DNA from: an uncultured Candidatus Saccharibacteria bacterium
GTDB taxonomy: Bacteria > Patescibacteriota > UBA1384 > JAMDBS01 > DAOVQR01
Assembly (NCBI GenBank): GCA_964481135.1
Contig: CAYZSW010000001.1
Coordinates: forward strand, 7,963 to 71,962
DNA: 64,000 nt
Direction of reading: 5' to 3'
The notes under the pieces are model-generated. The model ran no database searches and was not told the origin of the DNA. It saw only the letters and a list, made by a program, of their open reading frames with translations. Positions 29,679 through 57,694 of the stretch are shown piece by piece. A program made the position numbers and the translations under genes. Numbering within the stretch: position 1 is the first letter of the stretch; every line of letters begins with the position of its first letter.

Positions 29679-32600
29679 ATGAGTAAAACAAAATTTATCC
29701 ACTTGCATGTTCATAGTCATTATTCATTATTAGACGGCTTGTCAAAAATTCCTGAACTTGTATCAAAAGCAAAAGAATTTAACATGCCTGCCCTGGCATT
29801 AACTGATCACGGTAATATGTATGGAGCGATAGAATTTTATGAAGAGTGCCAAAAACAAGCAATAAAACCAATTATTGGTTGTGAAGTCTATATTGCTCCT
29901 AGAAATATGCAAGACAAACAAGCCAAAATTGACACACGACCTTACCACCTAGTATTACTGGCAAAAAACCTAGAAGGATATAAAAATTTAATTTATTTGG
30001 TGAGCCAAGCACATCTAACCGGATATTATTATAAACCAAGAATAGACAAAAAAATATTAAAAGAACACACTAAAGGGTTAATTGCTACTAGCGCTTGTCT
30101 TAATGGTGAAATTCCTCGATTAATTTTATCTGATAAACCAGATGTTGCTGAACAAACAATTAAATTTTATAAAAATATTTTTGGTGATGATAATTTTTAT
30201 TTAGAAATTCAATATCACCCCAAACTCATTGAACAAAATATTGTTAATAAAAAAATATTAGAATTATCAAAAAAAACTAAAACAAAAGTAATTTTAACAA
30301 ACGATTCACACTATTTAGAAAAAGAAGACCAAAAAGCCCATGAGGTGCTACTTTCAGTACAAACAGGTAAAGATTTTGACGACAAAGCGCGTCTTTCAAT
30401 GGTTGATATTGATGCTTCTTTTTACTCGCCAGAATATGCACAAAAAATCTTATCCGACCATCCAGAAGTTATTGAAAACACTTTAGAAATTGCACAAAAA
30501 TGTAATCTAAAATTAGATTTGGGAAAAAATATTTTACCTGAATTTGAAATACCAAAAAACGAACAAGATTCTTTTTCATATTTAAAAAAACTTACCCTAA
30601 ATGGATTTAAATATAAATACCTACAAAAAGACAATGTAGCAAAAAAAAGATTAGATTACGAACTACAAATAATCAAGAAAACTGGATTTGCTGATTATTT
30701 TTTAATTGTGTCTGATTTTATAAACTGGGCTAAAAATCAAGGCATTATTGTTGGCCCTGGTCGTGGTTCAGCTGCGGGATCTATTGTGTCTTATTGCCTT
30801 GGAATCACTGATCTTGAGCCACTGTCACAAAACTTAATTTTTGAAAGATTTCTAAACCCAGAAAGAATATCTATGCCTGATATCGATATTGATTTTGCAG
30901 ACGACAGGCGTGGAGAGGTTATTAAATATGTTCAAAATAAATACGGTGAAAACCATGTAGCACAAATAATCACTTTTGGAACCATGGCTGCAAGAGGATC
31001 TATAAGAGATACTGCGAGATCTTTAGGATTTTCTTATGATCAAGGAGATAAAATCGCAAAACTAGTTCCTTTTGGTATGAGTTTAAACCAATCTATGCAG
31101 GAGGTTGCCGAATTAAAAGATTTATACAATCAAGATGTTAATACTAAAGAAATTATTGATTACGCAAAAAAATTAGAAGGAGTAGCAAGGCATGCTGGAA
31201 CACATGCCTGTGGAGTAGTAATTTCGAAAAAACCTCTTATTGAATATTGCCCATTACAAACTGCCGCAAAAGGTGAAACAAATATTACTACTCAGTATTC
31301 AATGAAATATATTGAAGATATCGGATTATTAAAAATTGATTTTCTAGGATTATCTAATCTTACAGTAATTAAAAATGCTTTAAAAATTATTAATAAAATT
31401 CACAATACTAAAATTGAGATTGATAAAATCCCAATAAATGATAAACCTACATTTACATTGCTTTCCAGGGCACAAACTACGGGCATATTTCAATTGGAAT
31501 CAAACGGTATGAAAAGATATCTTAAACAACTAAAACCAAACTGTTTTGATGATATTATTGCCATGGTTGCACTTTACAGGCCAGGACCAATAGAACTAAT
31601 TCCAGACTTTATCGATAGAAAACACGGCAAAAAACAAATTAAATACTTACATCCAAAATTAGAACCGATCTTAAAAAATACTTATGGTATAGCTGTATAT
31701 CAAGAACAAATCATGCAAACTGCAAGAGAATTGGCAGGTTTTAGTATGAGTGAGGCAGATGTTTTAAGAAAAGCTGTAGGTAAAAAAATTAAATCCTTAC
31801 TTCAAAAACAAAAGTCAAAACTAATAAATGGTATGGTAAAAAATAAAATACCTCAATCGGTAGCAATAAAAATTTGGCAATACATTGAGCCTTTTGCAAA
31901 ATACGGTTTTAATAAATCACATGCCGCCTGCTATGCATTAATTGCATATCAAACCGCATATTTAAAAGCCCATTATCCAAAAGAATTTATGGCGGCACTT
32001 CTAACTTCTGATTTTGGCAATTTAGATAGGGTGGCTATTGAAATCGAAGAATGCACCAGATTAGGAATTCAAGTAATCCCGCCTGATGTTAACACCTCGT
32101 TTGAAAAATTTGGAGTAATTCCAGATAAAAATAATATATCATTTGGGTTAGAAGCAATTAAAGGAGTTGGTCAAAAAGTAGCACAGTTAATCGTGGAAGA
32201 AAGAAAGAAAAATGGAAAATACGAATCATTAGAAGATTTTTGTTCTAGATTAGGCCCTGAAGTAATTAATAAAAAAACTATTGAATCTTTGGCAAAATCA
32301 GGTGCATTAGATAAAATTGGTGAAAGAAACCAAATAATAGGTTCTGTTGACATAATTTGTAAATTTGCCAACCAATTATCTAAAAATAAAATTGCCAATC
32401 AAGCAAGTTTATTTGCTGACAACACTCAAAAAAATCAATTAATTAAGCTTTCTTTGAACTCAATTGACAAAGCATCAAAAAACCAAAGATTGTCTTGGGA
32501 AAGAGAATTTTTAGGAATATACTTAAGTGATCATCCACTTTTAGAATATAAAGAAATAATGCGACAATTTAACAGTAAAGATATTAATTTACTTAGATCC

Positions 32601-33101
32601 AATGAACAAAATATTAGAATTGCTGGAGTTATTACTTCTATAAAGAAAATTACTACCAAAAAGGGTGAACCTATGATATTTGCTAATATTGAAGATTTTA
32701 GCGGGAAAATTGAAGCTTTAGTTTTTCCGAAAATTCTTAAAGACAATGATTTAATATGGAAAGTTGATAATATTTTAGCAATTAAAGGTAAGGTTAATAG
32801 TAAAGATGGAAACTTAAAATTAATTGTTGAAAAATGCAAAGAATTAACTGAAATAAAAAAACAACACACTGTTAATAAAGAAAGAAAACTTGTCATATCT
32901 TTATTACAAAATGCCAACCTTAAAACACTTCAAGAAATTAAAAATATTCTAAAAGAATTTCCCGGAAAAGAAACTGTAATTTTAAAAATTATTCAAAATC
33001 ATGAGGAAAAAATTGTCATTCCAAAAATTAAGATAAATATTACAAAACAATTAATTAGCGAGCTTGATAAAATTCAAAATATTAAAAGTAATCAATTGTA
33101 A
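29679..33101 (+). CDS. dnaE: DNA polymerase III alpha subunit
   Basis: PHP domain (HLHVHSHYSLLDG), polymerase core and OB-fold; 1140 aa. Leader carries AATTAG repeats. Confidence 0.95.
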   Translation: MSKTKFIHLHVHSHYSLLDGLSKIPELVSKAKEFNMPALALTDHGNMYGAIEFYEECQKQAIKPIIGCEVYIAPRNMQDKQAKIDTRPYHLVLLAKNLEGYKNLIYLVSQAHLTGYYYKPRIDKKILKEHTKGLIATSACLNGEIPRLILSDKPDVAEQTIKFYKNIFGDDNFYLEIQYHPKLIEQNIVNKKILELSKKTKTKVILTNDSHYLEKEDQKAHEVLLSVQTGKDFDDKARLSMVDIDASFYSPEYAQKILSDHPEVIENTLEIAQKCNLKLDLGKNILPEFEIPKNEQDSFSYLKKLTLNGFKYKYLQKDNVAKKRLDYELQIIKKTGFADYFLIVSDFINWAKNQGIIVGPGRGSAAGSIVSYCLGITDLEPLSQNLIFERFLNPERISMPDIDIDFADDRRGEVIKYVQNKYGENHVAQIITFGTMAARGSIRDTARSLGFSYDQGDKIAKLVPFGMSLNQSMQEVAELKDLYNQDVNTKEIIDYAKKLEGVARHAGTHACGVVISKKPLIEYCPLQTAAKGETNITTQYSMKYIEDIGLLKIDFLGLSNLTVIKNALKIINKIHNTKIEIDKIPINDKPTFTLLSRAQTTGIFQLESNGMKRYLKQLKPNCFDDIIAMVALYRPGPIELIPDFIDRKHGKKQIKYLHPKLEPILKNTYGIAVYQEQIMQTARELAGFSMSEADVLRKAVGKKIKSLLQKQKSKLINGMVKNKIPQSVAIKIWQYIEPFAKYGFNKSHAACYALIAYQTAYLKAHYPKEFMAALLTSDFGNLDRVAIEIEECTRLGIQVIPPDVNTSFEKFGVIPDKNNISFGLEAIKGVGQKVAQLIVEERKKNGKYESLEDFCSRLGPEVINKKTIESLAKSGALDKIGERNQIIGSVDIICKFANQLSKNKIANQASLFADNTQKNQLIKLSLNSIDKASKNQRLSWEREFLGIYLSDHPLLEYKEIMRQFNSKDINLLRSNEQNIRIAGVITSIKKITTKKGEPMIFANIEDFSGKIEALVFPKILKDNDLIWKVDNILAIKGKVNSKDGNLKLIVEKCKELTEIKKQHTVNKERKLVISLLQNANLKTLQEIKNILKEFPGKETVILKIIQNHEEKIVIPKIKINITKQLISELDKIQNIKSNQL

Positions 33102-38371: not shown

Positions 38372-38788
38372 TTGCTAATTCAACAAATTACAAATAATAT
38401 TAAAAACATTATGGATAATTTAATATATCCAGAATTAAGCTATAAGATAGTGGGTTTGCTTTTTGAAGTATATAATAAATTAGGATATGGTTTGAGAGAA
38501 AAAGATTATCAAAAAGCGATATCAATTTTCTTGAGTGAAAATAATATTATATTTCAAGAACAAGTATCCGCAAATCTTAAAATTAATAATCAGAATATAA
38601 GAAAATATTATTTGGATTTTATAATTGATAATAAAATTGTTTTGGGATTAAAAACTGAAAATAGATTTAATAAAAATAATATTGCTCAAATATACAGTTA
38701 TTTAAAATCAACTAACAAAAAATTAGGAATTATAGCAAACTTTTCAAAATATGGAGTTAAATTTAAAAGAATTGTAAATATTAAATAA
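38372..38788 (+). CDS. GxxExxY family protein (PD-(D/E)XK-like)
   Basis: IVGLLFEVYNKLGYGLREKDYQKAI matches the family signature; 138 aa. Confidence 0.75.
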   Translation: MLIQQITNNIKNIMDNLIYPELSYKIVGLLFEVYNKLGYGLREKDYQKAISIFLSENNIIFQEQVSANLKINNQNIRKYYLDFIIDNKIVLGLKTENRFNKNNIAQIYSYLKSTNKKLGIIANFSKYGVKFKRIVNIK

Positions 38789-40031: not shown

Positions 40032-42230
40032 TTATTTTTTCTCCCAAATATCTTTTCTAAATATTAAGTATGCAAATCCGCCAGTCAATAAAATCGCAAG
40101 TAAAATATTAAACCAAAGCGCTGACCCCGTAGAAACTAAAGTACCTAAGCTAGAGCCATCTTTAATGCTTGTTGTAATTGAACAAGATTCTGTTGATACT
40201 TTTACTTCATCAGACTTCATAGATTTTTCACCTGCAGCATTATGAGCAATCACATAATAGCAGATTTCTACATCACAATTTAAACCAGTAAATACATAAC
40301 CGGTATCAGATGTTGATGTAATATATTTTCCAGTACAATCGAAAATATCATATCCTACGGCACCATCTACAGCATCCCATGTTAAAGTAGCCATACCTCC
40401 ACCGTTATAAACAAGCTCAATGTTTTCAGGTTTTTTGTCAGAAATATCCTGACCAGTTGAACACTTACCAGTGTTAACACTGGCTGTATTGCTAGGATTA
40501 GATTCCAATTCCTCATAACCAGCTGTTACATAATAACCGTAATTTGTTTCACAATTAAGTCCATCGATTACAAAACTCAAAGTATTCATATCAACTTGTG
40601 CTATCAACACTCCGCTTTCCGCGTTATAAATTCTATAATAACCAACACTGCTTCCTTCTAGTTTGTTCCATGCCAATTTTATTGAACTATTGGAAATCGG
40701 GGTGGCGGTTAGATTAATAGGTGATGGAGGGGGTGTCGGTGATACAGTTGGACTGGCCGTTGGACTAGATGTTGGGGTTAAAGTTGGAGAAGGTGTTGGG
40801 GTTATGCCACAATAAGTTTGCATACATTCTGTTCCATCTCCATATTGCGTACAATCAATTCTATATGCCCATTTAAAATAAACTGGTCCACCTGGAGTAT
40901 CAGTAGTCGCATCACACCCATAAACCTTTGTTCCTTCACATTTAAATTGACCTGATTCACATTCTGAGGGTGGAGTAACTGTTGGTGTCGGTGTTGGTGA
41001 CGAAGTTGGTGTCTCTGCTGGACAATTTAAATTTTGTGCTATCATTTCATTTGAATCGGCATATCTACCAGCACCAGTAGAGTTAACATATTTTGTCTGA
41101 ATTTTATAGGAAACATTATCATAACTTGGATAAAATTCTTCATGGGTTAGTGTAGATTCTTTATAAATAGTTGAATTGGTCGCAGACCACTGATTATTAG
41201 TTACAGATGATTTTACATAAGGCTGATAATAGTAAAAAGTGTATCCAGAGTAAGGAGTACCTTTTTGCCAACTGAGAGTATTTCTTTGTCTTCCAACTGT
41301 TGGATATCCACTAACACAAGTGGATTGAATTTTATTTAGAACAGGACTTTCATTGGCAGGAGTAGGAACTGGCGTAACACTTCCACATGAATTAGCGTAA
41401 GTTTCATAACTTCTATATGTTTTTCCATCGGCTTTATTTTTTACATATACTCGATAAGTGTAATTTGTAGATCCATCACTAAATGTATCTGTATGAGAAC
41501 ATTGTCCAGAAGAATTACATGGCCAAGTGGAAGTAATCGGTCTTTGATTAATTTGTGGACTACCAAGTGTAAATGTGCCACTCCCTGTTCTTCTCTGAAC
41601 TGTTACCCATTCGTATTTATCCCAAGGATTTGATCCTAAATTCCAAGTAAGTTGATTAGTTTTATTATTACAATTTTGATTTAAATTTAATGTAAAAGCA
41701 TTTATACATACATTTGGGTCAGTTGATGAAGTTGTACAGGTTGTACTTGGAGTTGTAGTAGGAGCGGGAGAAGTTGTAGGACTAACAGAACAAGATGCGA
41801 CCTGAACTGGACCATGTCTTTGACCTCCAGTACAATTACATTGAGCTGAAAAACTTCTTGAAAGAGAGTCTGCTGGTCCCCAGACACATTGTTGATCTCT
41901 TAATAAATTTTGGCATTGACTAATAGTTGACCATTCTGCGGAATTACCTAAACGAGTATAATAAGTACACTTACAGGCAGAAATCCCAATACCGGGGTTA
42001 ACTCTTAATGTGTCTGTTTGCATTCCGTTTGCACAAGTCGTTACAGCAGTCAAATTATTATTAGTAACAGTTCTAGTGGTACTCGCCCATAAACTAATTT
42101 TTCCTGTTTGATTGGCCCAAACTAGCGTTGCAAGTGAAAGAAAAAATATTCCTAAAACTATTACTAAGTAAGTCTTGCTCTTTTTAGTAGCAAATAATGG
42201 CTGATGCCAAATTGATTTTTTTTCTGACAT
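40032..42230 (-). CDS. large Cys-rich surface protein with Ser/Thr/Pro linkers and a C-terminal LVSTG-type cell-wall sorting signal
   Basis: Signal peptide, many Cys, TPTSSPTPTPT linkers, Ig/FN3-like repeats. C-terminus is LGTLVSTGSALWFNILLAILL...FRKDIWEKK. GC-richer than the backbone. Confidence 0.6.
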   Translation of the reverse strand: MSEKKSIWHQPLFATKKSKTYLVIVLGIFFLSLATLVWANQTGKISLWASTTRTVTNNNLTAVTTCANGMQTDTLRVNPGIGISACKCTYYTRLGNSAEWSTISQCQNLLRDQQCVWGPADSLSRSFSAQCNCTGGQRHGPVQVASCSVSPTTSPAPTTTPSTTCTTSSTDPNVCINAFTLNLNQNCNNKTNQLTWNLGSNPWDKYEWVTVQRRTGSGTFTLGSPQINQRPITSTWPCNSSGQCSHTDTFSDGSTNYTYRVYVKNKADGKTYRSYETYANSCGSVTPVPTPANESPVLNKIQSTCVSGYPTVGRQRNTLSWQKGTPYSGYTFYYYQPYVKSSVTNNQWSATNSTIYKESTLTHEEFYPSYDNVSYKIQTKYVNSTGAGRYADSNEMIAQNLNCPAETPTSSPTPTPTVTPPSECESGQFKCEGTKVYGCDATTDTPGGPVYFKWAYRIDCTQYGDGTECMQTYCGITPTPSPTLTPTSSPTASPTVSPTPPPSPINLTATPISNSSIKLAWNKLEGSSVGYYRIYNAESGVLIAQVDMNTLSFVIDGLNCETNYGYYVTAGYEELESNPSNTASVNTGKCSTGQDISDKKPENIELVYNGGGMATLTWDAVDGAVGYDIFDCTGKYITSTSDTGYVFTGLNCDVEICYYVIAHNAAGEKSMKSDEVKVSTESCSITTSIKDGSSLGTLVSTGSALWFNILLAILLTGGFAYLIFRKDIWEKK

Positions 42231-42259
42231 TTTATCCCTCCCTATTGATAGAAGCAGAA

Positions 42260-42697
42260 TTACGCAGATAGTGACGCAGAAGTACGCGGAACTTTACTGC
42301 GAGCTTTATCATAAACTCTGCGTATTATTTCTAACTTTTCCGCTCCAAAATTTATTAATAATCCTAATTTATATTTTGAACCTTTTAAATATAACCAAAA
42401 TTGTCGCTTATCTTCTTTAGTTATAAATGGTTTGCATTTAAGTTCTAAAAGAATTTTATCATTTATTATTTTATCTGGTTGATATATTCCAACCTTTTTA
42501 TTATTGAAATAAATATTAATTTTTACTTGATTTTTTACTTTAAGATTTTTGTTTTCTAGAGCAATAGTTAATGCCCTGTCAACAATTTTTTCTTTAAATG
42601 CTCCACCAAAGCATTTCCATACTTCAAAACATGCTCCTCTGACCTTGTAAGTTATATCTTTATAAAGTAATTTGTCTTGATTCATATGCTTCTGCAT
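42260..42697 (-). CDS. GxxExxY family protein
   Basis: GACFEVWKCFGGAFKEKIVDRAL signature. Flanked by imperfect inverted repeats rich in CTGCGTAATT and ACGCAGATA. Confidence 0.7.
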   Translation of the reverse strand: MQKHMNQDKLLYKDITYKVRGACFEVWKCFGGAFKEKIVDRALTIALENKNLKVKNQVKINIYFNNKKVGIYQPDKIINDKILLELKCKPFITKEDKRQFWLYLKGSKYKLGLLINFGAEKLEIIRRVYDKARSKVPRTSASLSA

Positions 42698-42775
42698 TAT
42701 TCTGCGTAATTATCTGCGTTTATCGGCTTCTACAATTTATTAAATCAAAAATATTAATATTTCACAAGTGGATAA

Positions 42776-43876
42776 CTATTTATTTTTTTTCCAAATATCA
42801 TCTCTAAACATTAAATAACCTATAGCCGAGGCCAGTAAAACTGCAAGTATAAGATTAAACCATAAAGAAGAACCTGTAGAAACTAGGGTTTTTAAATTAT
42901 TTAAACCAATCTCGCCTGAACTTATAGCATTAATATCGTCTTCGTTGTTGCTTTGATTCACACTAGTAATAACCTTTCCACCTGCCATATAAGTTCCGTC
43001 ATCTAAAAAACTATCATCCGACGAACCTTCTTTGCTCGTTTCAAAACCTAAATTATCCATAACCTTGTAATTAACTCTAATATCACAACCATTTAAAAAT
43101 GGAGTTAACCTGTTCGGAGAAAGGGTTTGTCCTAGCATGATTCCATCAAAATAATCTATTGGAGTAAATTCAATCACCGAATATGCTCCGGGCTGATTAG
43201 TACCTGCGTAATAAATATCACCATATTGTTGACAGTGTGCGTCGAGATCTAAATCTGGAATTTGATCAAAATCAAAACCTCTAGGTTTATTTTGAATTAC
43301 TCCATAATATGTATCGTATCTACCAGCATTATCTTGTTTATCCCCTTCTTTAGGAGTTGGAGCGTTGTGATAATTTACATCTGGCAAACGCCGATTCCCG
43401 ATTTTTGTTTTTATATTTTTAAAGTTTTTTGGATCATAAAAGTTTGGACTAATTCCTGCAAATATAAAATTCGGCAAGACATCAAGAGATGCGTTAATAT
43501 AATCCCATTTTCCGTTTTGTATACATTTTAAATATGGCGCCTTATAAACTAAATCCCCATCTATTTGGTGATAATCGAAATCTCCCATAGTGTAAGTAAC
43601 GGTATATGGTTGATTTTTTTCTAAATAAACAATTTCAGGTATTTCGACTACATCTTTTGCTAAATCAAAAAAACATTTTTCTGTAATCTTTTTGTTGTCT
43701 ACTATCATCTTTCCACTAATACATAAAGTACCTGGTGATTTATTTAAGCTAGCACTAATTTGTAGCAAATTTTTATGATTTAAATAAATTAAAACTGCAA
43801 AAAAAATTAATATTATTGATATCAAAACAAAACTAATAGTTTTAATTTTTTTATTTATTGGATTACTCACAATCAA
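42776..43876 (-). CDS. surface protein, paralogous C-terminal sorting signal
   Basis: Signal peptide. C-terminus is LKTLVSTGSSLWFNLILAVLL...FRDDIWKKNK. Confidence 0.55.
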   Translation of the reverse strand: MIVSNPINKKIKTISFVLISIILIFFAVLIYLNHKNLLQISASLNKSPGTLCISGKMIVDNKKITEKCFFDLAKDVVEIPEIVYLEKNQPYTVTYTMGDFDYHQIDGDLVYKAPYLKCIQNGKWDYINASLDVLPNFIFAGISPNFYDPKNFKNIKTKIGNRRLPDVNYHNAPTPKEGDKQDNAGRYDTYYGVIQNKPRGFDFDQIPDLDLDAHCQQYGDIYYAGTNQPGAYSVIEFTPIDYFDGIMLGQTLSPNRLTPFLNGCDIRVNYKVMDNLGFETSKEGSSDDSFLDDGTYMAGGKVITSVNQSNNEDDINAISSGEIGLNNLKTLVSTGSSLWFNLILAVLLASAIGYLMFRDDIWKKNK

Positions 43877-43915
43877 TCCTCCTGAATTATAAACCTCAAA
43901 ATAATTATTATATTA

Positions 43916-44494
43916 TTACTTTTTTCTTTTTTTCCAAATATCTTCTCTAAACATCAAATAGCCAATTGCCAGAGCAAGTAACACCGCAAGTACAAGATTA
44001 AACCACAAAGATGCGCCTGTAGAAATTAAAACAGCTGGATTTTTATGATAATCTGTTGGAAAATACAACTCTTCGTTTTCTAAATCCATTGGATCTGAGT
44101 ATATGGTTGGATAAGATATTGGGGAAATCTGTAGACAACAACAAGATTTACCCGCACCAAGAATTTGATCGTCTAAATAGCAATCTTCTGTTTGCCCAAT
44201 AGATATTTCCCCTTCTAGACAAATTTGCGGATCTTCTATAATTGGGTATTCTCTGCAAATTCCTGTTTCGTATCCCCTACTTAGACATTTTTCTTGACAA
44301 GTGTCGATAATAACAGTTGGCTGTGGAACTGGTGGGCTTGGGGTTGGAGTTTCCATAATAGGCACATACACATCAGCGGCAATTTTTAACTTTTGATTTG
44401 ACCCATACCAAATAATTACAGCTAAAAAAATTAAAAAAACACCTATTATAAAAAGCCAGGTCGTTTTAGTGTTATTTGAAAGTTTATTTTTCAA
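43916..44494 (-). CDS. small Pro/Cys-rich surface protein, paralogous C-terminal sorting signal
   Basis: TTG start after GGGAGGGG. C-terminus is AVLISTGASLWFNLVLAVLL...FREDIWKKRKK. Confidence 0.55.
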   Translation of the reverse strand: MKNKLSNNTKTTWLFIIGVFLIFLAVIIWYGSNQKLKIAADVYVPIMETPTPSPPVPQPTVIIDTCQEKCLSRGYETGICREYPIIEDPQICLEGEISIGQTEDCYLDDQILGAGKSCCCLQISPISYPTIYSDPMDLENEELYFPTDYHKNPAVLISTGASLWFNLVLAVLLALAIGYLMFREDIWKKRKK

Positions 44495-45369: not shown

Positions 45370-45795
45370 TTATCTAGTTACTGAAATTGTAACGCCTAAT
45401 TCTGCTCCGGGAGCGTTTACAGTAAGACGACCATTACCGTCTTGACAGACAGTATAGTCGGTTCCACTTGGATCAGATGGCATCGAAGAAACATAAGTTG
45501 GCACTGTGGCATTTGACATATTTGCTGCGGCAGTTGTTGCAGGACAAGTAGCTATAGCATTGCCCGCATTGTCAGTTGGCAAGTTACCATTATTGTCAAC
45601 AGCATTTTGATGAATAGCATTTAAAATAGTATTTGTGTCATTGCTGCGTTGAGAATTTCTTGATTGAGCAAATTGTCTTGCTGGATTAACTGCAATTAAA
45701 ACTATTACAGCTAATATTGCAATAATTCCAATTACAACTAAAAGTTCGATTAGTGTGAACCCTTTTGTTTGAACAAAAGACAGATTTTTTTTCAT
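45370..45795 (-). CDS. pilA: type IV pilin (candidate major pilin)
   Basis: MKKNLSFVQTKG / FTLIELLVVIGIIAILA class III signal with Glu at +5, and a C-terminal Cys pair. Start taken at the second Met, after GGAGGGAAA. Confidence 0.75.
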   Translation of the reverse strand: MKKNLSFVQTKGFTLIELLVVIGIIAILAVIVLIAVNPARQFAQSRNSQRSNDTNTILNAIHQNAVDNNGNLPTDNAGNAIATCPATTAAANMSNATVPTYVSSMPSDPSGTDYTVCQDGNGRLTVNAPGAELGVTISVTR

Positions 45796-45849
45796 TTTCC
45801 CTCCTAAATACGCAAATCGTATAACACGAAAATGCATAAATTATTTTTA

Positions 45850-46059
45850 CTATTGTTTATCTAATTTTAATTTTACTTCATCTAATCCTTTTATGTCAAT
45901 GAAAGAATCTGAGCCGATGTTTTCTGGCGCTTTATTATATTTACTAACAAACATACTTAAAGAATATAAAAAATACATAAAAATAAAAAGTCCCGATAAT
46001 ATTGTTATTACCAAAATTAATTTTACCTTTCGCTGATCTTTATCTGAATTATCAATCAA
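45850..46059 (-). CDS. hypothetical small single-TM protein in the pilus cluster
   Basis: 69 aa, overlaps pilO by 8 nt. Confidence 0.4.
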   Translation of the reverse strand: MIDNSDKDQRKVKLILVITILSGLFIFMYFLYSLSMFVSKYNKAPENIGSDSFIDIKGLDEVKLKLDKQ

Positions 46060-46582
46060 AATATACCTCCGTTAAAATCTCCGCTTTGACATTATCTTTT
46101 ATATTACCCGAATCGCTAATTTTTATTGCCTTTATCGTAACTAGAATATTTCTGTGATTAGATAAATTATTAATGAAACTCATAACATTTTCGGTATAAC
46201 CAGAAACAGTAAACCTAGCAGTAATTTTGTGACCTGAAATCTCGGATTCAAATTTTGTTGATAAATCAACTTTGTTATCTTTCGCCATAGCTTCGATTCT
46301 TGAAATAATATTTATTGCTTCATCCTGATTTGGCAATAATTGATTAATATATTCCACATCGTTAGATATTTCTTGATAATCTTTTTGAAGTTTGTCTAAG
46401 TTTGCTATTCTGTCCCTAAGGGCAATTTCTTGTTTTTGTTTTTCTTTATAATTTTCTATCTGCTGATTAACCATTAAATTTCCTTGCATAAGAAGAAGGG
46501 TTGTAATTAATATAAAGAACACTAACAATAAAATTGATTGGCTGAATTTGATTGAAATTTTTTTGAATTTGTATTTTGGCAT
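46052..46582 (-). CDS. pilO: PilO-like pilus assembly protein
   Basis: N-terminal TM helix, coiled coil and a ferredoxin-like C-terminal region; sits after the PilM/N gene. Confidence 0.5.
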   Translation of the reverse strand: MPKYKFKKISIKFSQSILLLVFFILITTLLLMQGNLMVNQQIENYKEKQKQEIALRDRIANLDKLQKDYQEISNDVEYINQLLPNQDEAINIISRIEAMAKDNKVDLSTKFESEISGHKITARFTVSGYTENVMSFINNLSNHRNILVTIKAIKISDSGNIKDNVKAEILTEVYFD

Positions 46583-46609
46583 AAGTATTAATAATTATTT
46601 TTATAAAAA

Positions 46610-48001
46610 CTATTTTAATGTTGTGGATAACTCAAAATCTACATCCTCATTTTTTTCTAAAGCAGTGATGGGTAAATTAATTTGGTTCATGAAATTTAAT
46701 TTGTTTAAATTATCTTTGAAAATAATTAGATCATTTCTACTTTTAGCGACACCTTTAATTTTTACATTTTTGTTACTTTCAATATTTATTTCTTTTAATG
46801 AAATATTTGAATCTGCGGAATCCATAATTTCTTCAATAAAATTTGGGTTGAGTGAATTTTCTAAAGGAATTGATTTGATTGTTGCAATTTTTGAATTAAA
46901 TTTTTTTATTTGCGCCTCAAGCTCTTCTTGTTTTGAACTGGTCTCAATATTTTGCAATTGAGCATATTCTTTACTTAAATTTAAATTATCGTAATAAATT
47001 TTTCCCCAGATAAACACATACGACAAAGCCAAAAAAATTACAAACAATATAAAATAATTTACAATACTAGAAAGTTTATAATTAATATTTTCATTTTTTG
47101 CATTTTCGCGAACTTCTGTTGGAGATAAACTAAGGTCTTCTAGCGAGAGGTTGAGTCCTAGATTGTCTATATAAGAAATATATTCCTGTTTAATATTTCT
47201 AATAATTTTAATATCGCTAGAATCACCTATCTTAATATTTTTTCCAATAGTGCTAATAATTTTTTGTTCAATATCAGAAAGATTTGGCGGACCAAAAATT
47301 AAAATTTGTGCAATATCTTCATTAAGATATTTTTTATTGTAATAATTAACTGTTTCTCCTATTATTCTCTCTAATCCTTTATAATTTGAGTCAATATAGC
47401 GTGATGTACTAAAATGAACATCTTTATTTTTTGCAATAACTATTGAAATATTGTTTGTTCTTGATAAATCAACTATTGCTATCAATTTATCTGAACTAGA
47501 CAGCAAACCAGCAAGTCCAGCAGAAGGGAAGGTAATAACCAAAGGTTTACATTTAGCTAAAACCAATGATTCAAAAAAACTATCTACAATCTTTTTTTCA
47601 CAAGCTGCGATAAGAACTATTAGTGCATTAGCTTTAGTGCCAATTATTTTCCAGTTGAAATATACTTCTTGAAGTTTAAAAGGAATTACTGATTCAATTT
47701 GATAAGTAATGGCAGAATCTACCTTGCTTACAGGCATCTTTGGAATCTCAATTGTTTTCAAAAAAACTTTTTCTTCTGGCAGTGCAGCAATAACTTCTGA
47801 TTGAGTGATTTTTTTAGGTTTAGCTTTTGATTTTAATTCAACAATAAGATCAGAAAAAATTTTAATTCTTTCGATTTTTCCTGCATTAACAACCCCTGCC
47901 GGTATATTGGCAGAAGCCACAGAATCAATATTTTTGCCAGTAATTTTACACAAACGAATCACATTGTTTGAATATGTTAGTGTAAAAAAATTGCGTTTCA
48001 T
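46610..48001 (-). CDS. pilM: PilM (actin-like ATPase) fused to a PilN-like TM and coiled-coil region
   Basis: Actin/HSP70-fold N-terminal 330 aa, then a TM helix (IVNYFILFVIFLALSYVFI) and a coiled coil. Confidence 0.6.
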   Translation of the reverse strand: MKRNFFTLTYSNNVIRLCKITGKNIDSVASANIPAGVVNAGKIERIKIFSDLIVELKSKAKPKKITQSEVIAALPEEKVFLKTIEIPKMPVSKVDSAITYQIESVIPFKLQEVYFNWKIIGTKANALIVLIAACEKKIVDSFFESLVLAKCKPLVITFPSAGLAGLLSSSDKLIAIVDLSRTNNISIVIAKNKDVHFSTSRYIDSNYKGLERIIGETVNYYNKKYLNEDIAQILIFGPPNLSDIEQKIISTIGKNIKIGDSSDIKIIRNIKQEYISYIDNLGLNLSLEDLSLSPTEVRENAKNENINYKLSSIVNYFILFVIFLALSYVFIWGKIYYDNLNLSKEYAQLQNIETSSKQEELEAQIKKFNSKIATIKSIPLENSLNPNFIEEIMDSADSNISLKEINIESNKNVKIKGVAKSRNDLIIFKDNLNKLNFMNQINLPITALEKNEDVDFELSTTLK

Positions 48002-48134
48002 TGTCGGATGCCCCTCCCTGCACAGAACTACACAAATATGAACACGGATTATACACTAAAATTGATAGTTTCATCACAAGAGCAACTAATCAGTGTATTA
48101 TTTTGTGTTCCCGCCTGTGTGAATTTTGTGTGTT

Positions 48135-48596
48135 CTAATATATTTCTTCGATATTATTAATAATCAGAATTCCGCTTGCATTAAAAGTAGCTAAAGCTTC
48201 AACTTTACAGATGTATCTATTGTTATTAACACGGCTTACAATGTTTATGTTTTTTGGGTTATCCCCAGTTATATCTATTATAACACTTCCGTCATCAAAA
48301 ATTAAGTTTGTGCCAGCAAAAGATGGATCCCGCATAATTCTCAAAATGGATTCATCTATTGCTGATATTGCATTGTTGTAGGCCTCGTCAGATTTTTTTA
48401 AATTAAAACTCATATCAGTATCAATTAAAACATTTTGTAAAACAACAGTTACTGCCAACAAAGCAACGGCTAAAATTACCATAACAGCTACCATGGCAGA
48501 ACCCTTTTCACATACAGAACCACACAAAAATGAACACATATTTACACTCTTCTTATGTAACTTTAATTTATTTATTGATGGTAATTGATGTGTCAT
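48135..48596 (-). CDS. hypothetical membrane protein, possible minor pilin (PilX-like), start uncertain
   Basis: N-terminal hydrophobic helix but no canonical GFTLIE. An alternative start ~48494 (MVAVMVIL) follows an AAAAGGG RBS. The annotated start sits inside a CA-rich repeat. Confidence 0.35.
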   Translation of the reverse strand: MTHQLPSINKLKLHKKSVNMCSFLCGSVCEKGSAMVAVMVILAVALLAVTVVLQNVLIDTDMSFNLKKSDEAYNNAISAIDESILRIMRDPSFAGTNLIFDDGSVIIDITGDNPKNINIVSRVNNNRYICKVEALATFNASGILIINNIEEIY

Positions 48597-48624
48597 TTTG
48601 TGTTCCTATTTGTGTTGATTTGTG

Positions 48625-49119
48625 TTACTTAAGGTAGTATGTTGTTTCAAATTCCTGCGAAATATCACGCTTACCCTCAACCTCTCCAATAAAATTAATA
48701 TTTATTTTAATTTGTATACTAGGCCTGCCTCCGACATTGGCAATTTTACGAAATTCTAAACTTTCTACTTTAACTTGGTTTGAGGTAACATTATCAAAAT
48801 CACCGCTTTCTGATCGAATTAATGTACCCGATATCAAACCATAACTCACATCTCCAGCTATTAAATTATTTGTTGGGTTGTTATCGTTTGGCACATCGAC
48901 ACTACTTGCATTTTGCAAATCACGAATAATTAACTCTGTGACAAACCTACCATTTTTTTGAATTTCAAGTCGTGCAGTTTCTTCTTGAGAAAAATAACTG
49001 GCAGTAATTAATAAGTTTGTAATTATTAAAAGAATTATCGATAAAAGCCCCATATATATAATGGTTTCTATGAGGGTGAAACCACCTTCAAATTTTTTTC
49101 CACTTTTATATTTTTTCAT
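48625..49119 (-). CDS. pilin-like protein with prepilin-type N-terminal cleavage/methylation domain
   Basis: KFEGG / FTLIETIIYMGLLSIILLI. Confidence 0.65.
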   Translation of the reverse strand: MKKYKSGKKFEGGFTLIETIIYMGLLSIILLIITNLLITASYFSQEETARLEIQKNGRFVTELIIRDLQNASSVDVPNDNNPTNNLIAGDVSYGLISGTLIRSESGDFDNVTSNQVKVESLEFRKIANVGGRPSIQIKININFIGEVEGKRDISQEFETTYYLK

Positions 49120-49326
49120 AATTAAATAAAATTTCTAATTTTTCTAATTGATCTAATTATTCTAAACAAATACCAAACTATAATTTCTAATGTCTAAATG
49201 TATTTTCTCTTTTTTGTTATTGGTGTTTGGGTCATTTTTTAGGTTAATTACCTGCCCGCCATTAGCTATCGCTTCAAGCGATTAGCAGGCGGGGAAATTA
49301 GGTTAATTAGGTTAATTTCTACTCGC
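49120..49326. repeat. repeated leader element, copy B
   Basis: GAAATTAGGTTAATTAGGTTAATTTC, a CCTGCCCGCC...GGCGGG hairpin and TTAGAATAATTAGATCAATTAG, ending in CAATTAGAAAAATTAGAAATTT before an ATG. Confidence 0.5.
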
Positions 49327-51251
49327 TATGGTGAATAATTCACCGACACATCGTAAACAACCGGTGTTTTGCTATTCTCAAGTGTTGTTAAATATATTTT
49401 ATATTTTATATATCTTCCTAAAGAATGTGAAAGAGGAATTGCTTCTCCATCTGGATTGGTAAATCGCGTTGCTTCTGTTCCGTCTGGTCCTACAAAATTC
49501 CATGTTGCATTATCAGTATTAGTAGCAATTTGGAATTCTACATTTGTTACTCCGGGATCGATCAATTCTGTCCAAAAAATCCGATTAAATGAAACTTCAT
49601 CACCTGCATCAAAAGTACTTGATATATATTGCCCAGACGGAAAGTAACCAGTTTCTGCGATAGCTGAAAGTCGAAACATTGTATCTTGATTATTAAATAC
49701 ATTCCAATTTGTACCGGCATTATTGCTTTCTGTATATCTTGCATCTAAACCCAGATAATTAATATCATTGTCTGGGCTTCGGTCTAAATTTTCTGCGTGT
49801 TCTATGTGATATGATCGATTATGTGCAGTTCCAGGTGATTTTAGATAAAATCTATATTGCCTTCCTTCTATAAAAGCAATTTTTGGGTCAAGTGAAATTT
49901 CATGTAGTTGATAATCCATAGTAATATCTGTTCTTGTAACAAAAATTTCGTTAAATAAAATAGTATTGGTTGTCATATCTTCAATAACTAAATATAAATC
50001 ATCTTGAGGCTGAGCACCAACACTTTTTTTAACATAAATTGCCATTCTATTAAAAAACTCTGTACCCTCTTTGTAAGTAAAAATTTCTCCTTTATAAAAA
50101 TTTCCGTAAACATCTTTGTCTCGTGCTTCATGATATGGATTTCCTTCGGCTTCTGGGTTGCTATCAGTAAATAATAAAATATAAACAGGCGTATTATTAA
50201 CATCTGACCAGTTTGCGCCACCATTACTAGTCCAGCGGATCATAAGATTTAAATCATCTGCACTAGTTAAAGGCACAACCAAGTTTAAAGGATTTAAAGT
50301 TCTAAATATAATTGATCTTCCGGCATTTATTTGACCTGAATTATGCTCTATTACTAGGTGATAAATATTACCAGCTGTAATAGAAACATTTTCATTTAAA
50401 TTAAGTTCATGCCAGCCAGTGTTATTAGTTTGAAAATCTTTATAACCCTCATTATTACCTCCCAACCAATTACCACTTGGACTACCGTTATTATCTGATT
50501 GCAGTCCATATCTATATGTAGGAGTTTGATTTTGATGAGTAGAAGAAATGTAAATTCTAAGCGCTCTTACCTCTTTTGTATTTTGAGCAGTAAAACGAAA
50601 AGAAACTTTTTTACTTGAATTATCTAATGCATCTGTTTGGCTAGTACCAAAAACAGAGAATCTGTTACCAACTTGCTTGCCTTCACCTTGTCCATAAGCA
50701 AGCTTAATTTCACCACCTTGATCGTTTGTAACTTCTGTATCATTTACAGTCCCATCTATAAAATCATTATAAGTTGTTTCAATCCAATTAGCATTGTTTT
50801 GATAACGAGTCAGATATATTTCCTTAGATATAGATAAATTACGGGGTTTTTGCCAAGAAACAGAAATAATAAATTTTTTTGTCGATGGGTCCTCAATTCC
50901 ACTTTCTGATATTTCTCCGCTAACCGCATTACGGTAAACTGATTCGATAGAGATGCTTCTAGTAAAATTATCATCGATATTTTCTACACCATCTGCTAAA
51001 TTCCACACTCCGTTATTATTTATAATACGAGCGGGATATGTATGATAAACTAAGTCATTCCACGACCGCTCGTGTATTGAATAAAGAGCATTAACTGCTT
51101 CTTGAACATATTCTTCTGCTTGAGTTTGTTTTAATGAATTAAACTGAGCTTGTGAAATATCTACAAAAAGACCAATAACTGAACTAATTATTACACTAGC
51201 AATAGCAGTAGCAATAATAAGCTCAATTAGAATTTGACCTTTATTTGACAC
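49326..51251 (-). CDS. large (~640 aa) pilin-like protein, candidate tip or PilY1/PilV-like adhesin subunit
   Basis: The ORF-track N-terminal extension translates a CA-rich leader. A GTG ~51251 gives MSNKG / QILIELIIATAIASVII, a classic short prepilin leader, followed by 600 aa of beta-rich sequence. Confidence 0.5.
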   Translation of the reverse strand: MSNKGQILIELIIATAIASVIISSVIGLFVDISQAQFNSLKQTQAEEYVQEAVNALYSIHERSWNDLVYHTYPARIINNNGVWNLADGVENIDDNFTRSISIESVYRNAVSGEISESGIEDPSTKKFIISVSWQKPRNLSISKEIYLTRYQNNANWIETTYNDFIDGTVNDTEVTNDQGGEIKLAYGQGEGKQVGNRFSVFGTSQTDALDNSSKKVSFRFTAQNTKEVRALRIYISSTHQNQTPTYRYGLQSDNNGSPSGNWLGGNNEGYKDFQTNNTGWHELNLNENVSITAGNIYHLVIEHNSGQINAGRSIIFRTLNPLNLVVPLTSADDLNLMIRWTSNGGANWSDVNNTPVYILLFTDSNPEAEGNPYHEARDKDVYGNFYKGEIFTYKEGTEFFNRMAIYVKKSVGAQPQDDLYLVIEDMTTNTILFNEIFVTRTDITMDYQLHEISLDPKIAFIEGRQYRFYLKSPGTAHNRSYHIEHAENLDRSPDNDINYLGLDARYTESNNAGTNWNVFNNQDTMFRLSAIAETGYFPSGQYISSTFDAGDEVSFNRIFWTELIDPGVTNVEFQIATNTDNATWNFVGPDGTEATRFTNPDGEAIPLSHSLGRYIKYKIYLTTLENSKTPVVYDVSVNYSP

Positions 51252-51333
51252 AGAATTACACAAATTGGAACACAAATTACCACACCTATTAAGTTGATGT
51301 GTATTTCTGTGTTCTGTTTTGTGTTTTTCTGTG

Positions 51334-51858
51334 TTAATTAACATCAATTACTCCCAACTTATTAATTGTAAAATTTCTAGTTTCGCCGGAGCTTAACTCA
51401 GATAATGAAAAATTTTTATTTTGCTCATCGTAATTCCTTACATTACCAAAAACTTTCTCAAAGACAATTGTCGAATTATCTGGTAAATTTGAATCTAATG
51501 ATAAATTGTCTGGTAAATTTACATTGATATTATAATTATCACTCGGGTTATAAATAATTCCCCGATATAAAACAATTTTATTTTCAACTGAATCAAAATA
51601 TATGCTAAAATTTTCGCCCGACTCAGCTGTATCGCAATTTTGGGTACACATTCTACTCATTGCCTGATTCTGTGCCTGATATATAGTAGATAATATTTGA
51701 GTCGAAAAAGAATCCAAACTGTTGGTTCGTTGAAAATTTAAATAAGAAACCCACGATCCAGCTAAAATAATACCAAAAATTCCTATCGTCACTAATAGTT
51801 CAATTAAAGTAAAACCTTTTTTAACTTGTAGCTGGTAGCTTTTTAGCTTATTAGACAA
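51334..51858 (-). CDS. pilin-like protein (prepilin-type N-terminal domain)
   Basis: TTG start after GGAGGGGC. KKG / FTLIELLVTIGIFGIILA. Confidence 0.65.
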   Translation of the reverse strand: MSNKLKSYQLQVKKGFTLIELLVTIGIFGIILAGSWVSYLNFQRTNSLDSFSTQILSTIYQAQNQAMSRMCTQNCDTAESGENFSIYFDSVENKIVLYRGIIYNPSDNYNINVNLPDNLSLDSNLPDNSTIVFEKVFGNVRNYDEQNKNFSLSELSSGETRNFTINKLGVIDVN

Positions 51859-51948
51859 TGCCCCTCCGTTTACTAGCTTATTAGTTTGTAGCCTTTTAAC
51901 TTATTAGAGAAAAATATCTAAGAAGCTAATTAGCTAATTCCTAAGAAG

Positions 51949-52407
51949 CTATTTTAAATGCTCTTTAATCTTTTCTACAACTTGATTTGGTGTAAGGTTT
52001 GCTTTTACTAAATAATCATTTGCGCCAAGTTTTTTTGCTCTATCAATATCAGTTTGCTGGCCAAGATTAGAAAATACTACTACTGGTTTTTTGGCGTTCG
52101 GCCAACTACTGGCACGAAGTTTTTCTAATATTTCAAATCCATCTACTTTTGGAAGCATCAGGTCTAAAAGTATAATACTATAATCATTTTTCTCTAATTT
52201 TTCTAAAGCTTGTTGTCCATCAAGAGCATTATCAACTTCAAAACCTTCCATTGAACATTTTGTTGAATACATTTTTACTAGTAATTCATCGTCTTCTATA
52301 ATTAATAATTTACCACCATTTTTTTCCAATTGTGCTGATTGATTAGCTGTATTGTCTGCTGGCTGTGGTTGACCCTGAGGTTGAACTGGTATTTGTTGAT
52401 TTTGCAT
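51949..52407 (-). CDS. single-domain response regulator (CheY-like receiver only) with a Q/P-rich N-terminal tail
   Basis: REC-domain motifs (LLIIEDD, DLMLP, receiver lysine region). Start chosen at MQNQQ after GAAAGGAG. Confidence 0.7.
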   Translation of the reverse strand: MQNQQIPVQPQGQPQPADNTANQSAQLEKNGGKLLIIEDDELLVKMYSTKCSMEGFEVDNALDGQQALEKLEKNDYSIILLDLMLPKVDGFEILEKLRASSWPNAKKPVVVFSNLGQQTDIDRAKKLGANDYLVKANLTPNQVVEKIKEHLK

Positions 52408-52456
52408 AATTATACTCCTTTCTTTCACACAGAACTACACAAATAGGAATACAAAT

Positions 52457-52882
52457 TTACACTTTAGTTAAAAACGGTTTTCTATCATTGGTGTAAATGA
52501 TTCTTTTGACATATAGTTTTAGTGTAGAAAAATTTACTAAATAACCTATTTCATATTTACTATTTCTTAAATAATGATAAAGTTGTATTTCGTCTTGTTT
52601 AGTAGTGAATCTTGACGATTTCAATTCTATAATAATTTTATTATCGATAATTACATCTGGTTTATAACTTCCTACTTTTTTACCAGTCTGATTAGAATAA
52701 ATACTAATTAATTTTTCTTTTTCAATTTTTATTTGTTTATTTGTTAAATATTCAATCAATAAATTCTGATAAATTGATTCTTTGTGACCAGGTCCGTATT
52801 CCTTTCTTATTTCGAAAAAACATCCTTGAACAATATAGCTTAATTCCTTGTAAAGGAACAGCTTCTTATCTGGTGCGTTCAT
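52457..52882 (-). CDS. GxxExxY family protein
   Basis: [29 protein letters not shown]. Start MNAPDKK follows AGGAACACAA. Flanked by ~20-bp imperfect inverted repeats at 52425-52465 and 52870-52920. Confidence 0.7.
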
Positions 52883-53023
52883 TTGTGTTCCTGTTTGTGT
52901 TGTTTTGTGTTGTAACCAACGGTAATGTAAAGCTAAAATTGGAGCCATGCCCTTCGCGACTCTCTACCCATATTTTACCACCACATCCTTCAACTATCAA
53001 TCGGGAAATGTAAAGGCCTAAAC

Positions 53024-55201: not shown

Positions 55202-55252
55202 AATAATTATATTGGTAACGCGTAATGGGTAATAAGTAACGCGTAATTAATA

Positions 55253-55789
55253 TTATCTAATATTTTTTCTTGCCGCATACATTCTTTCAGCTAAACCACC
55301 ATTTTGTAAAAAATCTTTTTCTAAACTCTGAAGCTGGCGATCTAATAGATAGTTAGCTTGGTGAATTAAACAAATTATTGAATTTGCTGCAGATTCTGGA
55401 TCTGACATATAGGTCATATAAGTCTCATAAGACCTATTCGACCTATAAGATAATTTTCTAATTTCCTGAATTCGTGAATCTTCTTTGTTCCAAAGTTTTA
55501 ATTTTTTCTGACGCAAAAAATCCAAATAATCTTCTAAAAGTTCTTCTAAACTTGCCCTAGCCACACCAATAAGTTTTATTTCAGATTTTTTTGATGTACC
55601 TGAAACTTGACTTCCTTCAACAATATTTTGCTTTCCACTTCTTGCGGCTTGGACCATTTGATCACGCGTCCTAGAAAATTTACTAACATATTTATTACAA
55701 AATTGGTCTGTCAAATCGTAAACTATAACCGAATTTTGATAGGATTTTAACTTTTTGTATCCTCCATGAATAGATATAAAATTTGACAT
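55253..55789 (-). CDS. four-helix-bundle protein (TIGR02436 / 23S rRNA intervening-sequence protein family)
   Basis: KSYQNSVIVYDL...GKQNIVEGS pattern; 178 aa. Confidence 0.65.
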   Translation of the reverse strand: MSNFISIHGGYKKLKSYQNSVIVYDLTDQFCNKYVSKFSRTRDQMVQAARSGKQNIVEGSQVSGTSKKSEIKLIGVARASLEELLEDYLDFLRQKKLKLWNKEDSRIQEIRKLSYRSNRSYETYMTYMSDPESAANSIICLIHQANYLLDRQLQSLEKDFLQNGGLAERMYAARKNIR

Positions 55790-55887
55790 TTAATTTTTCC
55801 TTAAATTTTATTTATTCTACTATCTTACCTACTTGCCTACAGGTCTTACTATTTATCTACCATCCTACTGGCCTACTTTCTACTAGC

Positions 55888-56208: not shown

Positions 56209-56259
56209 AATTTTCCTTTCTAATGGCCTACTAGCCTATCTTTCTACTAATCCAAAGGC

Positions 56260-57631: not shown

Positions 57632-57694
57632 ATTTGCTCCGCAAAACTTATAACTAATATTTCATAACTCATAACCATATCTAATAACTTAAAA

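Follow-up and report, generated by a model that had tools for sequence, protein, structure and literature searches.

Three tandem genes of a Candidatus Saccharibacteria bacterium encode proteins with a shared leader and a candidate L-[V/I]-S-T-G sorting signal

Results

Three neighboring genes encode secreted proteins with the same C-terminal tail

We analyzed a window of 64 kb, the whole stretch of DNA considered here, from an uncultured Candidatus Saccharibacteria bacterium (contig CAYZSW010000001.1), an ultra-small member of the Candidate Phyla Radiation (CPR, or Patescibacteria). Three neighboring genes on its minus strand encode secreted proteins of 732, 366 and 192 amino acids (aa) that share a C-terminal tail which, judging from the unclassified sortase that adjoins tail genes in related genomes, is very probably a variant of the LPXTG signal for cell-wall sorting in Gram-positive bacteria. 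The open reading frames (ORFs) lie at 40032-42230 (732 aa), 42776-43876 (366 aa, or 364 aa in public gene calls) and 43916-44494 (192 aa), where a preliminary description of this DNA had placed them.

In each tail, an xxxTG motif is followed by a hydrophobic stretch of ~20-22 residues and an R/K-rich end. The signal of the 732-aa protein (40032-40139, minus strand) reads LVSTG-SA-LWFN-ILLAILLTGGFAYLIF-RKDIWEKK-stop, that of the 366-aa protein (42776-42886, minus strand) LVSTG-SS-LWFN-LILAVLLASAIGYLMF-RDDIWKKNK-stop, and that of the 192-aa protein (43916-44029, minus strand) LISTG-AS-LWFN-LVLAVLLALAIGYLMF-REDIWKKRKK-stop; the last residues are FRKDIWEKK, FRDDIWKKNK and FREDIWKKRKK, respectively. 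The C-termini (...LGTLVSTGSALWFNILLAILLTGGFAYLIFRKDIWEKK, ...LKTLVSTGSSLWFNLILAVLLASAIGYLMFRDDIWKKNK and ...AVLISTGASLWFNLVLAVLLALAIGYLMFREDIWKKRKK; a segment spanning the motif is ...KTLVSTGSSLWFN...) read exactly as they had been quoted before.

The passengers between leader and tail differ, as had also been reported: pairwise they do not align, and the three proteins share ~48 tail columns, 20 of them invariant. Between its leader and its LVSTG tail, the 732-aa protein has a Cys-rich region (28 Cys in the protein), Pro/Thr linkers and one or more fn3 domains (Pfam fn3 at 1e-06). The 366-aa protein has a passenger that an AlphaFold2 model of low confidence shows as all-beta (predicted local distance difference test score, pLDDT, 61.7), followed by a disordered linker and an LVSTG tail, and a structure search with this model gave no PDB match at E<1e-3. 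Conserved Cys pairs (LCIxGK...KC) are common to this passenger and its homologues P0018, P0023, P0025 and P0060. In the 192-aa protein, a Pro-rich linker and a small Cys-rich domain with 8 Cys lie between the leader and an LISTG tail. A Pfam/NCBIfam scan assigned no family to the 366-aa or the 192-aa protein, and in a word-indexed search of proteins the 732-aa sequence retrieved nothing but itself and a spurious low-complexity match. Seven public contigs carry a protein identical to the 732-aa product, and one of the related loci described below (L001) encodes a homologue of it with a matching tail.

The tail is under purifying selection and recurs on unrelated passengers

In a six-frame scan of the window, the pattern [ST]TG..[LIVMF]W occurred in these three ORFs only, LWFN occurred once elsewhere, in a non-coding frame, and no LPxTG- or LAxTG-type tail was found. 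The DNA pattern back-translated from STGxxLWFN had three matches in the window against 0.00 expected from 100 dinucleotide shuffles. Where two tails have the same residue and that residue has degenerate codons, the codons differ at 8 of 19, 6 of 17 and 11 of 24 positions per pair (35-46%). Since the tails differ at synonymous sites to this extent, their similarity has been kept by selection on the peptide, and recent duplication or gene conversion was rejected as the source of their likeness; recent duplication had been named as a counter-case in the preliminary description.

The tail also occurs well beyond the three paralogues. An exhaustive HMMER search with a tail profile against 1.84 billion cluster representatives (50% identity, E<=1e-3) matched 61 representatives, 58 of them genuine; a word-indexed protein search with the three-tail alignment gave no match, the query being too short for the index. 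In all 58 genuine matches the tail lies at the extreme C-terminus, in proteins of 103-993 aa and one 34-aa fragment, and the N-terminal passengers are heterogeneous and unrelated. The tail is thus a module under purifying selection that recurs on unrelated passengers. Among the 57 regular tails, the pentapeptide is composed of L (55), V (47) or I (10), S (54), T (55) and G (57), so that the P3 residue is Val in 47/57 and Ile in 10/57 and Pro is not used. The Gly is followed by [A/S/G], [S/A/N/V], L (51), W (56), F/I/V and N (57). Next comes a stretch of ~12 hydrophobic residues, 52 tails having Ala at +12, and after it Y at +21 (52), [FL][MIL][FL], R (48) and then [KR]. The preliminary description had included a (R/K)DIWKK ending in the shared signal; L(V/I)STG, LWFN and the helix are indeed common to the three proteins, but the DIWKK ending is a subgroup trait outside the general signal, with other members ending in LRKK or RKRADY.

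When the full-length proteins were compared with curated sorting-signal models, nothing was found at E<=1 apart from noise. Among 50 isolated tails, the curated model matched most often was LPXTG_anchor (TIGR01167; 23/50), with an alignment that covers the TG, the helix and the basic part only. The isolated tail of the 732-aa protein scored 10.2 bits, the other two window tails had no match, and the best individually scanned relative reached 15.2 bits.

The same proteins share a conserved N-terminal leader

The three proteins also share an N-terminal leader, which the preliminary description had overlooked and which is conserved as strongly as the tail. A basic n-region and a hydrophobic core, the features of an N-terminal export signal, are present at the N-terminus of all three. 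The leader of the 732-aa protein (42081-42185, minus strand) consists of KKSK, a 17-residue hydrophobic core and then VWANQTGKISLWAS; that of the 366-aa protein (43745-43855, minus strand) of NKKIK, the hydrophobic core and then IYLNHKNLLQISASL; and that of the 192-aa protein (44369-44476, minus strand) of NNTK, the core and then IWYGSNQKLKIAADV. Leaders of the family align without gaps as K/R-x-K/R, a 17-residue hydrophobic core (17-20 in the window proteins) and [VI][WY]-A-x-Q-x-G-[KR]-[ILV]-x-[IL]-x-[AG]-[DSN], and they are present in all tail proteins of the related loci L001, L006, L008, L010, L011, L013, L016, L017 and L021.

When a leader hidden Markov model (HMM) was applied to the window and to the relatives fetched (1,153 ORFs in all), 26 ORFs matched; of these, 24 have an LVSTG-type or LAATG tail, one is truncated at a contig end and one is a weak match. 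Within the window it matched the three tail genes only, at 57-64 bits (64.1, 57.3 and 56.8 bits in the order above). A signal-peptidase site probably follows I-x-[A/G] of the leader, and by analogy the leader may be a dedicated signal peptide with a role like that of YSIRK leaders.

In a subfamily, the leader is preceded by a further conserved motif on the cytoplasmic side, [SF]-[FIV]-W-[HD]-[QK]-x-[VL]-F-x-[NST]-x-[KR]-[SN]-[KR] (for example SIWHQPLFATKKSK). It is found at 42186-42230 of the window, in the first 15 residues of the 732-aa protein, and in P0008, P0026, P0028, P0029 and P0039.

Tail genes and one clade of sortases are neighbors in distant relatives

The candidate cognate sortase is a 355-aa protein encoded at 21915-22982 on the plus strand of the window. 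Its locus is bordered by LepA (20050-21849, minus strand), a border that is conserved, and by the lipid II flippase MurJ (23900-25531, minus strand; Pfam MurJ at 2.1e-82), which neighbors the sortase locus in all relatives. The conserved order in relatives is LepA, substrates, sortase and MurJ, with the LVSTG genes located between LepA and MurJ. Since LepA is 57-69% identical between the window and these relatives, the compared genomes are only distantly related.

A GTDB genome scan with the tail gave one locus (L001), a metagenome scan with 10 tails gave four, and the wider context of loci was obtained through look-ups of exact proteins. We counted seven independent tail-derived loci with at least 5 kb of flank, the window included. 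In five of these seven (L001, L006, L008, L011 and L013), a sortase gene directly adjoins the tail genes. L001, from a metagenome-assembled genome labelled Ca. Saccharibacteria, encodes LepA, a sortase, three tail proteins, a second sortase and MurJ; L006 has four tail genes around one sortase; and in L008 a tail gene is immediately followed by the sortase. L011 encodes LepA, two tail proteins, a sortase and MurJ, and L013/L014 encodes LepA, one tail protein (LVKTG), a sortase and MurJ. L010 has no sortase within 10 kb and is syntenic with the region of the window that encodes NYN, the tail proteins, XerC and PAP2.

A reverse search that started from sortase homologues 43-48% identical to the window protein found tails within 5 kb in 3/3 informative loci. 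In L016 (sortase identity 48%) the order is sortase, two tail genes, sortase and MurJ, and the other two loci come from Berkelbacteria. In L017 (44%) the gene for an 830-aa Kelch/PKD leader protein ('...TLVSTGNPAWLIGLIAL...SRHK') adjoins the sortase; in L021 (43%) the adjoining gene encodes a leader protein ending '...NLAATGVGDW...RGR', and a second tail gene, for a leader/PKD protein ('...TLVSTGGNLLVNL...'), lies 4 kb from the sortase. The contig of L015 (49%) ends at the sortase, and L018, L019 and L020, with sortases of 35-41% identity in other genomic contexts, have no LVSTG neighbors. Overall, sortase genes are directly adjacent to tail genes in L001, L006, L008, L011, L013, L016 and L017 and within 5 kb in L021, where chance would produce such adjacency at a rate of a few per thousand. 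No LPxTG-type substrate tail was found in the fetched loci. A pairing of the sortase with LPxTG substrates, which the preliminary description had named as a counter-case, was thus not observed: such tails are absent from the window and the fetched loci, and in relatives the genes for the tails described here flank orthologous sortases.

The Berkelbacteria proteins also help to delimit the signal. Since the L017 protein retains the pentapeptide LVSTG and has lost the downstream LWFN, and since the leader protein next to the L021 sortase carries LAATG, the core can be written as L-[VIA]-x-T-G. On this comparison, it is the extracytoplasmic pentapeptide L-[V/I/A]-x-T-G that persists across the widest divergence, as a sortase recognition site would be expected to do.

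Two other kinds of tail lie next to related sortases. In L020, a 107-aa neighbor (10777-11100) of the 35%-identity sortase ends in DDAETG-P, a transmembrane (TM) segment and KRH; in L021, the Berkelbacteria leader protein at 9177-9989 ends in NLAATG-VGDW, a TM segment and RGR and has a class-E-like LAxTG motif. The LAATG and DAETG tails suggest that the non-proline signals of CPR bacteria form a graded family.

The sortase belongs to an unclassified clade

The preliminary description had recognized a sortase with a complete catalytic signature at 21915-22982, and our analysis bears this out. The protein matches PF04203 at 4.6e-25 (88.2 bits, cutoff 26.6) and TIGR01076 at 66 bits (cutoff 39.35), and His226, Cys293 and Arg302 are invariant across 51 homologues. 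Its N-terminus is cytoplasmic and is followed by a TM helix (about residues 77-114), a linker and a catalytic barrel at residues 174-315. AlphaFold2 modelled the latter as an eight-stranded sortase barrel with pLDDT mostly >90, preceded by the long TM helix and a poorly defined linker. Foldseek matched this model to sortases at 1e-13 to 1e-10, with class C ranking first (2xwg, 2.8e-13) and SrtE1 and class A enzymes next.

In a comparison with NCBIfam models of the sortase classes, the window sortase scored 82 bits for class C, 65 for SrtD, 58 for class D, 50 for class E and 15.5 for class F, where the class-specific cutoffs (classes A-F, GN) are 140-166 bits. Nine orthologues from LVSTG loci each had a best class score of 60-81 bits, and all pass the generic sortase model. 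Since the window sortase and these orthologues fall far below every class cutoff, they form an unclassified clade, which by these scores appears roughly equidistant from classes C, D and E.

One residue of the clade bears on the P3 residue of the tails. Tyr208 (in 'GVVHY') is Tyr in 45/51 homologues and aligns with the Phe of 'IGHF' in C. perfringens SrtD (CpSrtD; 4d70). Kattke et al. equated this Phe position with Tyr229 of SrtE1, in the S3 subsite (beta3/beta4 loop), and proposed for this S3 Tyr a hydrogen bond to the P3 amide where P3 is not proline (PMC5148588). Indirectly, through the CpSrtD alignment, Tyr208 is consistent with a class-E-type S3 tyrosine and would fit Val, Ile or Ala at P3. 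In BLAST, the alignment to S. aureus SrtA covers only the region from beta4 to the Cys and stops short of Tyr208, so the placement of Tyr208 rests on the CpSrtD alignment.

Two further segments are conserved in the sortase clade: an 'LFL' motif within a short helix of low pLDDT between the TM anchor and the barrel (residues 134-146), and a C-terminal '...LPW' (345-355) after a Pro-rich extension.

Other genes of the region

A GxxExxY / PD-(D/E)XK_3 gene (42260-42697, minus strand; TIGR04256 at 2.9e-27, PF13366 at 3.3e-28) lies between the genes for the 732-aa and 366-aa proteins. It is absent from the tail clusters of the relatives compared (L001, L010, L011 and L016) and is probably an unrelated insertion. 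Counting this gene, the window has paralogous GxxExxY / PD-(D/E)XK_3 genes at 38372-38788 (plus strand), 42260-42697 (minus strand) and 52457-52948 (minus strand), each with a PF13366 E-value of ~1e-27.

The tail genes adjoin a type IV pilus cluster on the minus strand (45370-62425), which encodes an N_methyl-motif pilin, PilO, a PilM/PilN fusion, several minor pilins (one of 673 aa), PilC (T2SSF) and PilB (T2SSE) and is interrupted by sensor/regulator-like ORFs. The conserved backbone that the window keeps comprises, besides the LepA, sortase and MurJ genes, those for GltX (26323-27663), L19/L27 and DnaE (29679-33101).

A 272-aa ORF in the gap between the sortase and MurJ genes (23085-23903, plus strand) was considered as a substrate and rejected, having no signal, tail or Pfam family; relatives carry different small ORFs at this position. 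In L001, a 125-aa membrane ORF of ~four helices and no Pfam family (6129-6506) lies between two tail genes and overlaps the start of the next gene. It was not seen in the other loci.

Discussion

A proposed two-part address for an unclassified CPR sortase

We consider it probable that the three proteins are Sec-exported substrates of an unclassified CPR sortase that recognizes L-[V/I]-S-T-G, and that they carry a two-part address specific to their lineage. The preliminary description had proposed a sortase-type signal in which L-(V/I)-S-T-G takes the place of LPxTG, and this proposal gains support from the 58 clusters and from the linkage of the tails to orthologous sortases. The features observed are the architecture of the signal, its recurrence, the purifying selection on it, its linkage to one sortase clade, and the catalytic residues and fold of that clade. 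In the mechanism that we propose, export would be driven by the leader, and the precursor would be held in the membrane by its C-terminal helix and basic tail. Cys293 of the membrane-anchored sortase would then attack the Thr-Gly bond of LVSTG, and an amino group of lipid II or peptidoglycan would resolve the acyl-enzyme, MurJ being a conserved neighbor. The passenger domain would thereby be covalently displayed on the cell wall.

A broader proposal, which we hold with somewhat less than even confidence, is that these elements make up a self-contained and previously undescribed surface-display system of a CPR lineage related to Berkelbacteria and Saccharibacteria, composed of a LepA-MurJ sortase clade outside classes A-F, a spacer-less L-[V/I/A]-x-T-G-xx-LWxN signal orthogonal to LPXTG, and a dedicated leader on exactly the same proteins. 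In this system the leader may route the proteins to the sortase, as YSIRK leaders do, or may pair with the C-terminal helix. Leader and tail would then jointly specify which surface proteins these episymbionts display covalently to their hosts.

As for the passengers, the fn3, Kelch and PKD modules and the Cys-rich regions found in the family would suit surface or binding proteins. The preliminary description had spoken of a diversified adhesin family; diversified surface proteins fit what we found, but an adhesin role is a guess from the fn3, Kelch and PKD domains, and no structural match was obtained for the passenger of the 366-aa protein.

Several observations weigh against a sortase signal. 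The conservation of LWxN, Ala +12 and Tyr +21 exceeds what a sortase pentapeptide needs, and from the Gly to the hydrophobic segment there are only two small residues ([ASG][SANV]), with no charged or hydrophilic spacer. Haft 2023 describes such a spacer-less motif-TM layout as typical of the signals of intramembrane sorting enzymes and not of those of sortases. The tails score 10-15 bits against the TIGR01167 cutoff of 15.9. Two of the seven tail-derived loci, the window and L010, have no adjacent sortase, and in the window the sortase lies 17 kb from the tail genes, although the LepA-sortase-MurJ locus is kept. The related sequence inspected amounts to ~330 kb of loci, so that other substrates or enzymes may be encoded elsewhere in these genomes. 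Finally, that the signal is cleaved, at which bond and with which nucleophile, and what the proteins do at the surface are matters of inference. Because the layout is spacer-less and conservation extends through LWxN into the helix, two minority readings, an uncleaved anchor and a different enzyme, keep some weight, and a third concerns the fate of the cleaved product.

Under the first, the tail would be an uncleaved C-terminal stop-transfer anchor in which STGxxLWFN docks to another membrane component, the sortase neighborhood being coincidental or serving a different substrate. The conservation of W, N, A and Y at fixed spacing into the helix would fit this, as would the missing spacer, the C-terminal helix that begins right at the TG in the AlphaFold2 model, and the distance of the sortase in the window and L010. 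However, it is the extracytoplasmic pentapeptide that is best conserved, with the L017 and L021 tails keeping it where LWFN is lost. Moreover, the adjacency in 5/7 tail-derived loci and within 5 kb in 3/3 sortase-derived ones would arise by chance only a few times per thousand, and no xPxTG-tailed alternative substrate was seen beside these sortases. We therefore think an uncleaved anchor unlikely.

It is also improbable, in our view, that the sortase cuts the signal but that the products polymerize or cross-link into a pilus- or fiber-like assembly. In both sequence and structure the sortase does match pilus-type class C enzymes best, two paralogous sortases flank the substrates in L001 and L016 as in pilus islands, and the substrates are clustered, several of them with fn3 or Ig-like modules. 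Yet at the level of a regex motif search, a pilin motif (xVxVYPK or YPKN) and an E-box were found in 0/58 family members, and at that level the tail proteins were rejected as pilins. The class C HMM score is half its cutoff and comparable to those for D and E, the passengers vary in size and fold, unlike shaft, tip and base pilins, and the window has a single sortase.

That the tail serves a different processing enzyme, for example of the exosortase, archaeosortase or rhombosortase type, with the sortase acting on other proteins, is very unlikely: the spacer-less layout does resemble PEP-CTERM, PGF-CTERM and GlyGly-CTERM, but the matches of some tails to Loki-CTERM (15.5 against a cutoff of 19.9), JDVT-CTERM (16.2 against 27) and PEP-CTERM (E>=0.4) are all weak, below cutoff and confined to the helix, the Pfam listings of the loci contain no exosortase or rhomboid and no polytopic candidate that is consistent across tail loci (the 125-aa membrane ORF is confined to L001), no exosortase, rhomboid or CPBP protein was among the membrane ORFs tested in the window, and the sortase is the sole consistently adjacent gene.

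Significance of the signal

The LVSTG-type signal is very probably a previously undescribed variant. A literature search for LVSTG, of incomplete coverage, found nothing relevant, and the searchable CPR literature, likewise incompletely covered, names no recognition motif for a CPR sortase, an absence of evidence only. According to Meheust et al. (PMC6744442), more than half of CPR genomes encode members of a sortase family, and other CPR genome papers mention sortases in passing. Surface proteins of CPR bacteria are prime candidates for host attachment, and the signal bears on what CPR sortases recognize. L[V/I]STG, LWxN and the leader provide a sequence rule by which the covalently displayed surface proteome of this lineage could be listed from metagenomes. 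If our interpretation is true, the signal would supply a substrate rule for a widespread, uncharacterized clade of CPR sortases. The P3 range of sortases would widen from Pro and Ala to the beta-branched Val and Ile, which fits the S3-tyrosine idea developed for class E, and the enzyme and motif would be a candidate pair orthogonal to LPXTG for sortase-mediated ligation.

Comparison with known systems

The closest general model is the LPXTG/sortase system (TIGR01167, PF04203). As in that system, a T-G motif, a hydrophobic helix and a basic tail are combined with an N-terminal export signal, the transpeptidase is a membrane-anchored Cys enzyme with a His-Cys-Arg triad, and diverse passengers are encoded in clusters by the sortase. 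The LPXTG system uses Pro at P3, whereas the tails here have Val or Ile (Ala in a Berkelbacteria relative). They also differ from LPXTG signals in lacking a charged spacer after the Gly, in the strong conservation of xxLW[FIV]N and of helix residues, and in their CPR host.

A second parallel is offered by the class E sortases of Streptomyces (SrtE1/SrtE2) with their LAXTG signals. There too P3 is not proline; the window sortase has a Tyr that aligns, indirectly, with Tyr229 of SrtE1, and a long cytoplasmic extension precedes its TM anchor. In addition, the L021 relative has a LAATG tail beside an orthologous sortase. In contrast, the clade scores 44-68 bits against the class E cutoff of 160, the class E signal has Ala at P3 where 57/57 regular tails have beta-branched Val or Ile, and neither the LWxN extension nor the dedicated leader is known from substrates of class E. 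The class C sortases (A. oris SrtC1, 2xwg; GBS SrtC1) are the best catalytic-domain matches in sequence (3e-15) and structure (2.8e-13), and their paired arrangement around substrates recurs in some loci (L001 and L016). Unlike class C, the window sortase reaches half the class C cutoff and has no DP[FWY] lid motif that we identified, and its putative substrates have neither pilin nor E-box motifs.

At the N-terminus, the leader invites comparison with the YSIRK-G/S signal peptides found on LPXTG proteins of staphylococci and streptococci. The two are not similar in sequence, and the leader motif [VI][WY]AxQxG[KR] follows the hydrophobic core, on the outer side of the membrane, and is not part of the n-region. 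What the leader, in its putative role, has in common with YSIRK-G/S is that a family-specific, conserved element at the N-terminus co-occurs with a C-terminal sortase signal on unrelated surface proteins.

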